A stretch of 64,000 bases of DNA from Escherichia coli (GTDB lineage Bacteria; Pseudomonadota; Gammaproteobacteria; Enterobacterales; Enterobacteriaceae). The notes beneath the pieces were generated by a model that made no database searches, was not told where the DNA came from, and worked only from the letters and a program-made list of their open reading frames with translations. Location of the stretch: NCBI RefSeq assembly GCF_003334355.1, contig NZ_QOWP01000004.1. The stretch is one strand, 5' to 3'. Positions 53,620 to 54,292 of the stretch are shown piece after piece; position 1 is the first letter of the stretch, and every line of letters begins with the position of its first letter. The translations under genes were made by a program, and so were the position numbers.

Positions 53620-53741
53620 TTGCCATCTAAATGTATTCTGAAAATGGACATGCCATTGTTTTCTCACTGTTGGATAAGAGGCCAGAAGCGTAATATCCGG
53701 CCCCAGGGAAACGATAACGGTTGAATTTAAGGAATACCGCA

Positions 53742-54230
53742 GTGTTTAAATTTCTTGTATTAACATTAGGCATTATCTCTTGCCAGGCTTACGCAGAAGA
53801 TACGGTTATAGTAAACGACCATGACATTTCAGCCATCAAAGATTGTTGGCAAAAAAATTCAGATGATGATACTGACGTTAACGTGATCAAATCATGCCTG
53901 CGACAAGAATACAATCTCGTCGATGCGCAATTAAATAAAGCCTATGGTGAAGCTTATCGTTATATAGAACAAGTGCCACGCACAGGTGTAAAAAAACCTG
54001 ATACCGAACAACTTAACTTGCTTAAAAAATCACAGCGAGCCTGGCTGGATTTTAGGGACAAAGAATGTGAATTAATCCTTTCAAATGAGGACGTTCAGGA
54101 TTTAAGTGACCCTTATTCTGAATCAGAATGGCTCTCATGTATGATCATACAGACCAATACGCGAACTCGCCAGTTGCAGCTATACCGTAACTCTGAAGAT
54201 TTTTATCCAAGCCCTTTGACAAGAGGATAA
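53742..54230 (+). CDS. yecT: YecT, secreted DUF1311 (LprI-like) protein of unknown function
   Basis: GTG at 53742 with AAGGA RBS 8 nt upstream gives 162 aa; signal peptide VFKFLVLTLGIISCQAYA; the ORF-track start at 53721 is TTG. Confidence 0.7.
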   Translation: MFKFLVLTLGIISCQAYAEDTVIVNDHDISAIKDCWQKNSDDDTDVNVIKSCLRQEYNLVDAQLNKAYGEAYRYIEQVPRTGVKKPDTEQLNLLKKSQRAWLDFRDKECELILSNEDVQDLSDPYSESEWLSCMIIQTNTRTRQLQLYRNSEDFYPSPLTRG

Positions 54231-54246
54231 TTCACATATTTTTGGC

Positions 54247-54292
54247 ATGTTTTGTTGCAATCTATTCCTGATAAATGATTGCAACAAAACAT
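54247..54292. terminator. 16-bp perfect-stem hairpin between convergent yecT and flhE
   Basis: atgttttgttgcaatc - 14 nt loop - gattgcaacaaaacat; T-run a few nt downstream on the plus strand. Confidence 0.55.

Follow-up and report, generated by a model that had tools for sequence, protein, structure and literature searches.

yecT of Escherichia coli, an exported DUF1311 gene with relatives in type VI secretion islands and a possible orphan immunity function

The gene yecT lies between argS and flhE in a stretch of 64,000 nucleotides of Escherichia coli DNA (contig NZ_QOWP01000004.1), the whole of which is called here the window and whose positions are used below. It codes for a small protein of the LprI/DUF1311 family, predicted to be exported, that is the namesake of the annotation label "YecT, DUF1311 family" and belongs to the remaining K-12 genes without assigned function. 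Databases and the literature already cover the gene with its start, its family and its regulators. The finding that is new in this work is the genomic context of its close relatives outside Escherichia, which are 53–69% identical and are found mostly in vgrG islands of type VI secretion systems (T6SS). This context gives about even odds (probability near 0.5) to a function of yecT as a stand-alone, or "orphan", immunity-type gene whose product would inhibit, in the periplasm, lysozyme-like T6SS toxins of rival bacteria.

The yecT gene and its start codon

The order of genes around yecT in the list of open reading frames (ORFs) of the window is cutC, yecM, argS, yecT, flhE, flhA, flhB. The features that define the gene and its product are the following.

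51832–53565, + strand: argS (ORF list)
53566–54350, no strand assigned: argS–flhE spacer, an AT-rich "islet" of 785 bp that holds yecV, the yecT promoter, yecT and a hairpin
53721–54230, + strand: yecT ORF, 169 codons, with GTG 53742 in frame
53729–53733, + strand: yecT Shine-Dalgarno sequence AAGGA, 8 nt 5' of the GTG, read from the sequence
53742–54230, + strand: yecT coding sequence, GTG start, 162 codons and stop, placed by RefSeq at identical coordinates
53742–53795, + strand: YecT signal peptide, codons 1–18 (MFKFLVLTLGIISCQAYA), then EDT, with a predicted signal peptidase I cut after AYA
53844–54176, + strand: LprI/DUF1311 domain, YecT residues 35–145, a helical bundle by modelling, with cysteines C35, C52, C109 and C133
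54351–54743, − strand: flhE (ORF list), convergent with yecT

An earlier note on this DNA, made from its letters alone, had recognized the gene as yecT, an identity that agrees with the RefSeq annotation (product name "lysozyme inhibitor LprI family protein", 162 aa). The allele of the window is 100% identical to the K-12-type allele. The precursor has ~18.9 kDa and the predicted mature form of 144 aa has ~16.9 kDa and a pI of 4.6. The AT-richness that the earlier note attributed to yecT is confirmed by its GC content of 0.389 (0.337 at third codon positions) versus 0.530 (0.571) for argS and 0.527 (0.481) for flhE. The intergenic pieces on either side of the gene are AT-rich too (GC 0.42 and 0.34).

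Translation of YecT most likely begins at GTG 53742 behind AAGGA, which was also the proposal of the earlier note and is the RefSeq start. In the alignment of homologous loci (designated by L and a number) the start codons share one column, occupied by GTG in E. coli, by TTG in four T6SS-linked homologues and by ATG in Escherichia fergusonii, L005 and L018. A GGAG-type Shine-Dalgarno sequence (GGAG/GGGAGG) is found at the equivalent position before the start in every aligned locus. The alternative start TTG 53721 is disfavoured, its seven additional codons being unconserved while the homologues start at the GTG column behind their Shine-Dalgarno sequence; it would be of consequence solely for a lipoprotein. 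The further claim that the gene lacks an in-frame ATG is correct in that there is no ATG usable as a start, but one ATG, the sole one of the ORF, exists at 54141 (Met134), too distal to serve as such. Non-ATG starts are common in the YecT clade, since TTG or GTG recur at the aligned position in most of its members (L004, L006, L016, L017 and the window). This suggests that weak translation initiation may be a trait retained in the clade.

Export signal, domain and fold

The amino terminus of YecT has the features of a signal peptide, as claimed earlier: a basic residue (Lys3, in MFK), a hydrophobic core at residues 4–13 with a mean Kyte-Doolittle value of 2.55, and an A-x-A site. In the first alignment of the clade position 18 is always Ala; in the wider one its column has Ala or a different small residue. 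A lipobox-like sequence, IIS-C14, coincides in part with the signal, and a PROSITE-type regular expression matches at C14 if translation starts at the GTG or at C21 if it starts at TTG 53721. The PROSITE lipobox rule requires the cysteine to be at positions 15–35; C14 falls one short. The sequence V/I-I-S-C is also found in E. fergusonii YecT. A soluble periplasmic protein with a signal peptidase I site is favoured because Cys14 is missing from all T6SS-linked homologues while the A-x-A site is kept in them; lipidation of Cys14 would be the alternative.

The Pfam LprI model PF07007 matches YecT over its complete length (model positions 1–106 of 106, E 1.4e-17, 64.5 bits), in agreement with the DUF1311-like domain that had been read from the translation. 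The Pfam scan found LprI only and no MliC domain. The AlphaFold2 model, calculated from an alignment of 56 sequences, has four helices, a predicted local distance difference test score (pLDDT) of 87.6 and a predicted template modelling score (pTM) of 0.80. Low confidence is limited to residues 1–20 (pLDDT 56–59) and to the last dozen or so. As modelled, YecT has the helical-bundle fold of solved DUF1311 structures. The cysteines C35, C52, C109 and C133 are conserved in at least 90% of 56 homologues and align with cysteines of the structure 3gi7; throughout the YecT clade these four residues and a carboxyl terminal YPSPxxRG motif show little or no variation.

With YecT alone as query the PDB gave no match by sequence, the informative searches being those with profiles and folds. 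The structures compared are PP0307 of Pseudomonas putida (PDB 3gi7), a DUF1311 protein solved by structural genomics, and 6ar7 of Burkholderia thailandensis, which have 14–15% identity to YecT. YecT differs from both by ~15 extra residues at each end, including the conserved YPSPxxRG tail. Since no function is known for either structure, they say nothing on mechanism. The NCBIfam model of UmoC (NF041434) matches YecT over its full length (E 5.5e-9) with 36.1 bits for a cut-off of 120. This match is to be read at the superfamily level only because distant DUF1311 proteins score alike: ten unrelated ones and the T6SS immunity protein Etsi4 are also below threshold, at 21–64 bits. Membership of YecT in the UmoC family was ruled out by its score. 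Note that "lysozyme inhibitor" in the product name of YecT is the name of the family and does not stand for an observed activity.

YecT relatives in T6SS islands

The YecT clade is very small. An exhaustive HMMER search of 1.84 billion representatives yielded only four intact, clearly diverged clusters (43–58% identity) followed by matches at ~33%, the other strong matches being pieces of the gene from Escherichia or Shigella. A scan of one genome per species found a YecT-type gene in E. whittamii, Escherichia sp. E1V33 and Mangrovibacter phragmitis only. Gene context was examined at about a dozen homologous loci. In six of them the YecT homologue (53–65% identity in the mature region) is the final gene of a T6SS vgrG island, and the short contig L018 has upstream immunity-like island genes in common with L004. 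These six loci, and the effector genes or regions read in them and in L015, are listed below.

L004, Citrobacter-like: effector at 917–3820, with a CHAP carboxyl terminus
L006, Pantoea/Enterobacter-like: effector at 2755–5040, with a pesticin-like carboxyl terminus
L010, Mangrovibacter: effector at 167–5894, with GH24-like and M23 carboxyl terminal domains
L013: effector with a GH19-like fragment, called by reading from a RGxIQLT-type motif
L016, Gibbsiella dentisursi: effector at 4179–6425, with a Muramidase PF11860 carboxyl terminus (residues ~560–748)
L017, Salmonella enterica
L015: effector at 7552–10113

The YecT-type gene precedes the gene of PAAR by 62–69 bp in the five loci whose spacing was read, and a 386-aa gene, TssM and TssA come next. 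The polymorphic effectors are encoded directly after VgrG. They have in common an amino terminus of ~540 aa (46–90% identical), in which a Pfam scan for a conserved toxin domain, a potential target of YecT, gave weak EF-hand matches only, and differ in their peptidoglycan-hydrolase carboxyl termini. Among the latter, the GH24-like carboxyl terminus matches the BgtA endolysin model (E 4e-16) and Muramidase PF11860 the endolysin 7q4s (E 1e-30). A small signal-peptide gene of its own comes after each effector. In L006 this adjacent gene codes for a DUF1311 protein, more distant from YecT, and overlaps with the stop codon of its pesticin-like effector gene, as is usual for cognate immunity genes. 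The architecture of the island effectors appears to resemble the published WHIX class, whose members are flanked by DUF1311 and DUF3828 immunity genes (PMC12135965). The GC content of the Mangrovibacter island is 0.32–0.40 versus 0.55–0.60 for its genome, the same contrast as that of yecT in E. coli. Mangrovibacter also has a second, frameshifted copy of the effector (296 + 399 aa). Carriers of these islands include Citrobacter tructae-like strains and the Salmonella strain of GCA_022441045.1.

A role of the YecT-type gene as core component of this T6SS subtype was ruled out. In E. coli DSM 103246 the gene is missing from a related cluster, one that codes for VgrG, a GH108 effector, a 264-aa protein, PAAR and TssM. 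Nor was it found in species-representative genomes, several of which (Cedecea lapagei, Shimwellia blattae, Enterobacter asburiae) are named as having the 386-aa gene. The 386-aa backbone gene has ~375 member sequences at ≥87% identity, far more than the 14 of the T6SS-linked YecT-type cluster at 90%. For these reasons the YecT-type gene is viewed as variable cargo at the distal edge of the island, a place where displaced ("orphan") immunity genes are reported to pile up (PMC9796082). Exact-sequence look-ups of two PAAR proteins returned the same loci and none further.

Comparison with known DUF1311 proteins

Co-expression of Etsi4 of enterohaemorrhagic E. coli protects E. coli against Etse4, a cell-wall effector that acts in the periplasm (PMC12981562). 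Etsi4 and YecT are alike in being small signal-peptide DUF1311 proteins of Enterobacteriaceae. However, Etsi4 is encoded directly 3' of its effector in a T6SS cluster whereas neither an effector nor a T6SS gene lies near yecT. In Salmonella Dublin the pair SED_RS06230/06235 is a prediction, with SED_RS06230 as the LprI-domain partner of a LysM/transglycosylase-like effector (PMC8867033). The hcp island of T6SS1 of Pantoea agglomerans carries the orphan LprI immunity genes A7P61_RS17160/17155, whose homologues elsewhere follow lysozyme-like effectors (PMC9796082). These orphans and yecT are all LprI-domain, signal-peptide genes without a neighbouring effector, but the former are still within a T6SS cluster while yecT is on its own, with housekeeping genes on one side and flagellar genes on the other. 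The closest systems listed also include TsiV3/TsaB of Vibrio cholerae (PDB 4nsr), which gives immunity to the peptidoglycan hydrolase domain of VgrG3.

Other members of the superfamily have been studied outside of T6SS. LprI of Mycobacterium tuberculosis (Rv1541c), an envelope protein from which the family takes its name, shares the LprI/DUF1311 domain with YecT. It is a lipoprotein that carries in addition a MliC domain (PMC7933661), whereas YecT has DUF1311 only and, in all likelihood, a site for signal peptidase I. ScwA of Salmonella Typhimurium (SL1344_0490) is, as YecT, a DUF1311-superfamily protein encoded by low-GC DNA; it is periplasmic and has two DsbA-dependent disulfides (PMC7933661). 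It differs in its length of 275 aa, in the position of its gene between ybaP and copA and in that it alters the levels of endogenous hydrolases, and it plays no part in resistance to lysozyme (PMC7933661). UmoC of Proteus mirabilis, a DUF1311-superfamily envelope protein, raises flhDC expression; YecT scores below the cut-off that defines UmoC.

Distribution and evolution of the islet

The spacer that holds yecT is an accessory islet. Of 5426 complete E. coli genomes, 3642 contain it by a megablast search with positions 53560–54360. When 2.2 kb spanning the locus served as query, at least 80% was covered in 3544 of the 5426 and ~65% in the remainder; the yecT islet is absent from ~35% of these genomes. 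In strain CFT073 an unrelated spacer of 52 bp, with its own terminator-like hairpin, is found in place of the 785 bp. Where present, yecT is under purifying selection, with ratios of non-synonymous to synonymous divergence (dN/dS) of 0.06–0.22 among E. coli, E. whittamii and Escherichia sp. E1V33. The intact 162-aa YecT is the dominant form, with 2183 member sequences in a single 90%-identity cluster, and many truncated forms are found in Shigella. The interspecies dS of yecT (0.10–0.16) is under half of that of argS (0.38–0.41) and mostly below that of flhE, which suggests that the islet was exchanged more recently than its flanks.

E. fergusonii has a yecT gene (L014, 39–539) at the same site beside flhE, whose protein is 58% identical to that of E. 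coli; for FlhE the identity is 85%. E. coli YecT has 64–69% identity to the T6SS-linked and L005 homologues versus 59–62% to the E. fergusonii allele. The argS–flhE site holds divergent yecT alleles or nothing, and the sequence comparison indicates either an allele replacement or a very fast evolution at the yecT site of E. coli and E. fergusonii. The homologue of L005 is the closest to E. coli YecT outside Escherichia (68%) and its source DNA has ~35% GC, a base composition like that of yecT itself. The YecT clade may for that reason derive from a low-GC lineage.

Insertions of IS1 and larger deletions are present at argS–yecT–flhE in several complete genomes (hits H1, H35, H45). The region from yecT to flhD was reported to be lost recurrently in a Keio strain after FLP expression (PMC13082787, bioRxiv 10.1101/2025.03.19.644130). 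No phage record matched yecT. Carriage by plasmids was discarded, the four matches (96–99%) in very large or small Escherichia/Klebsiella records being read as chromosomal DNA filed as plasmids.

Promoter, regulation and the flagellar neighbourhood

The region between argS and the yecT start contains the following features.

53584–53615, + strand: argS intrinsic terminator, with a 14-bp stem, a 4-nt loop and a T-run
53607–53651, − strand: yecV, a small RefSeq ORF of 14 codons (MSIFRIHLDGNKKA) that reaches over both the argS terminator and the far-upstream part of the yecT promoter region
53620–53741, + strand: yecT promoter and 5' leader, reported to be activated by BglJ-RcsB and moderately repressed by H-NS/StpA (PMC3950696)

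According to the same publication, the argS–yecT intergenic fragment is a near-silent promoter whose activation by BglJ-RcsB is RcsB-dependent, on the evidence of a transcription start mapped by rapid amplification of 5' cDNA ends, of lacZ fusions and of quantitative reverse-transcription PCR; expression has a very low basal level and is moderately increased in an hns stpA mutant (PMC3950696). The sequence TATTCTGA at 53634–53641 fits the quoted core wwTTCykA and is a candidate BglJ-RcsB box. This core occurs 22 times in the 64 kb and the chance of a match in 120 bp is ~0.04. TAATAT at 53691–53696 is, by reading, a candidate −10 element of yecT. As for yecV, it is named "hypothetical protein" in some genomes, and a 14-bp deletion right beside it is listed among avibactam-resistant isolates (PMC12323667).

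The link to the flagellar operon implied in the earlier note is not supported. The gene converges on flhE, is absent in ~35% of the genomes and has a promoter that was mapped as activated by BglJ-RcsB and repressed by H-NS/StpA (PMC3950696). No sigma-28 consensus TAAAGTTT-N11-GCCGATAA was found near yecT with up to 3 mismatches. A flagellar function was rejected on these grounds, and the position of yecT beside the flagellar operon would be incidental. RcsB represses flhDC. It follows that yecT would be induced when flagella are off.

The gene is one of ten loci that PMC3950696 assigns to the BglJ-RcsB regulon, to which yqhG belongs as well. The latter (NC_000913.3, 3157650–3158576; L019, 7650–8576) is annotated as a DUF3828 protein, and DUF3828/Tai3 is named as a T6SS immunity domain in the WHIX paper (PMC12135965). 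The presence of two immunity-type periplasmic domains, those of YecT and YqhG, in one small regulon may not be a coincidence.

A possible orphan immunity function

The role of periplasmic inhibitor or immunity protein that the earlier note had guessed for YecT is strengthened, by analogy, by the T6SS-island relatives and by the published DUF1311/LprI immunity proteins. Two traits of T6SS immunity proteins are recognized from sequence, namely homologues in effector/immunity islands (the six loci, and L018 through its common island genes) and a predicted periplasmic location. E. coli K-12 is not known to have a T6SS. The gene would have been acquired from a T6SS cluster, out of its AT-rich effector/immunity island, and have settled between argS and flhE. 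Its product would be exported by the Sec pathway, cleaved after Ala18 and, by analogy with ScwA, stabilized by disulfides, to yield in the periplasm the compact helical bundle that is modelled with high confidence. This bundle would bind to an arriving lysozyme-like toxin on the face of its active site and so block it, as the genomic company of the relatives and the example of Etsi4 suggest. The toxin would originate from the T6SS of competing Enterobacterales, which would deliver it into the periplasm.

A function of this type would explain purifying selection on an AT-rich, silenced and strain-variable gene. It would also add to the evidence that bacteria without T6SS hoard immunity genes against the weapons of their neighbours. 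An extension of this proposal, that yecT is part of a small H-NS-silenced set of orphan immunity genes of T6SS-less E. coli such as K-12, switched on by RcsB (for yecT as BglJ-RcsB) under envelope attack and with yqhG as candidate second member, is speculative and judged unlikely. Under this extension commensals would be provided with an inducible, effector-specific shield against cell-wall T6SS toxins of Citrobacter, Salmonella, Enterobacter or Pantoea, and the presence or absence of yecT and the allele replacement at argS–flhE would record an arms race with such attackers. Should the immunity proposal fail, yecT stays an exported DUF1311 protein without known function, as it is in databases.

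Several observations weigh against an immunity function. The neighbours of yecT in E. coli are argS, yecV and flhE, none of them an effector gene. Within the islands, another small gene and a gap of 140–390 bp always separate the YecT-type gene from the effector; direct coupling to an effector, which would point to a cognate toxin, is never seen in the islands read. Between island types the YecT-type gene diverges in parallel with TssM and PAAR (67–73% versus 77–79%), which would also fit an accessory role to the secretion backbone. Homologues are also found without T6SS context, between can and leuD in Ignatzschineria (L011, L012) and, in L005 (6094–6585), beside a 257-aa signal-peptide gene and flgE/flgD. 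YecT has 21% identity, over 91 residues, to Etsi4, the one E. coli DUF1311 immunity protein that was tested.

A different function, rather unlikely but with arguments in its favour, would be the modulation of the peptidoglycan hydrolases of the cell itself or of envelope homeostasis, in the manner of ScwA or UmoC, YecT being an envelope factor of the Rcs regulon with a possible feedback on motility. The precedent of ScwA, which is periplasmic with two disulfides, affects the levels of MltD, Slt and AmiC and is encoded by low-GC, horizontally acquired DNA (PMC7933661), is weakened by the size of this protein (275 aa), the carboxyl terminal position of its domain and its other locus and architecture. 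Likewise, the full-length match to the UmoC model (E 5.5e-9) has a score, 36 versus 120 bits, that is generic to DUF1311 proteins. Three homologues lie by flagellar genes (at flhE in E. coli and E. fergusonii, at flgE/flgD in L005), but yecT converges on flhE, has no sigma-28 consensus and is absent in ~35% of E. coli, including CFT073. The repression of flhDC by RcsB, which is established, implies moreover that yecT would be induced with flagella shut off. The co-divergence of the T6SS-linked homologue with backbone genes remains in favour of such a role, as do the activation of yecT by the BglJ-RcsB heteromer (PMC3950696) and a YecT/DUF1311-family protein of Pseudomonas aeruginosa that scored in a transposon-sequencing screen with beta-lactams (PMC7038268).

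It is distinctly improbable that YecT inhibits lysozyme of the animal host and, together with Ivy, MliC and PliG, shields the murein sacculus in phagocytes or in the gut. M. tuberculosis LprI, the protein behind the name of the Pfam family, is reported to be a lysozyme inhibitor (Sethi et al. 2016, as cited in PMC7933661 and PMC12981562), but YecT is without the MliC domain that this protein has (Pfam; PMC7933661), and a scwA null mutant of Salmonella is unchanged in lysozyme sensitivity (PMC7933661). The predicted periplasmic location of YecT and the response of its promoter to the envelope regulator RcsB (PMC3950696) would suit this function. Yet the relatives of YecT keep company with bacterial toxins and not with host-interaction genes, and the ~35% of E. 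coli without yecT include the uropathogen CFT073, which meets host lysozyme.

That yecT is a functionless hitch-hiker, the silenced and decaying remnant of a horizontally acquired fragment, as its AT-richness, H-NS/StpA repression and very low basal expression (PMC3950696), weak GTG start, absence in a third of genomes, truncated Shigella forms and the IS1 insertions and deletions of the region (including PMC13082787) could suggest, is highly improbable in view of its dN/dS of 0.06–0.22 across three species, the dominance of the intact 162-aa form (2183 members in the 90% cluster), the near invariance of the four cysteines and of YPSPxxRG, and the dedicated activator-dependent promoter described in PMC3950696.

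The inverted repeat between yecT and flhE and other features

54247–54292, no strand assigned: inverted repeat, with arms of 16 nt at 54247–54262 and 54277–54292, 100% complementary, and a 14-nt loop

The perfect 16-bp inverted repeat reported earlier 3' of yecT is present at these positions. RNA folding of 54228–54350 gave −30.9 kcal/mol for the + strand (z −4.4 relative to shuffled sequences) and −33.6 kcal/mol for the − strand (z −4.2). On the + strand the repeat is followed by CCAGCCTTTTTC, with a short T-run six bases on and a T8 run at 54338–54345. Its core of 14 bp is kept in E. whittamii and Escherichia sp. E1V33 and is missing in E. fergusonii and in the T6SS loci. A mobile or dispersed element and a known RNA were ruled out, the repeat having a single copy per genome and no Rfam family at gathering score in a scan of its region. 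The scan for consensus terminators did not call the repeat, because its loop is longer than 8 nt. In the simplest reading it is probably a terminator-type or RNA-stabilising hairpin that serves yecT and/or flhE.

Three further features were recorded in the window. A perfect 14-bp palindrome, TGTATGATCATACA, with a GATC site is found inside yecT at 54138–54151 (+ strand), across the codons of Cys133 and Met134. Within argS, 1397 bp 5' of yecT, the sequence TCGGTATGCTGATTGCA at 52328–52344 (+ strand) is unchanged in the window; it corresponds to IS24, listed as an intragenic sigma-54 binding site by a genome-wide chromatin immunoprecipitation study (PMC4591121). The composition profile has a low-GC patch (0.35) at 50000–50300, immediately before cutC.

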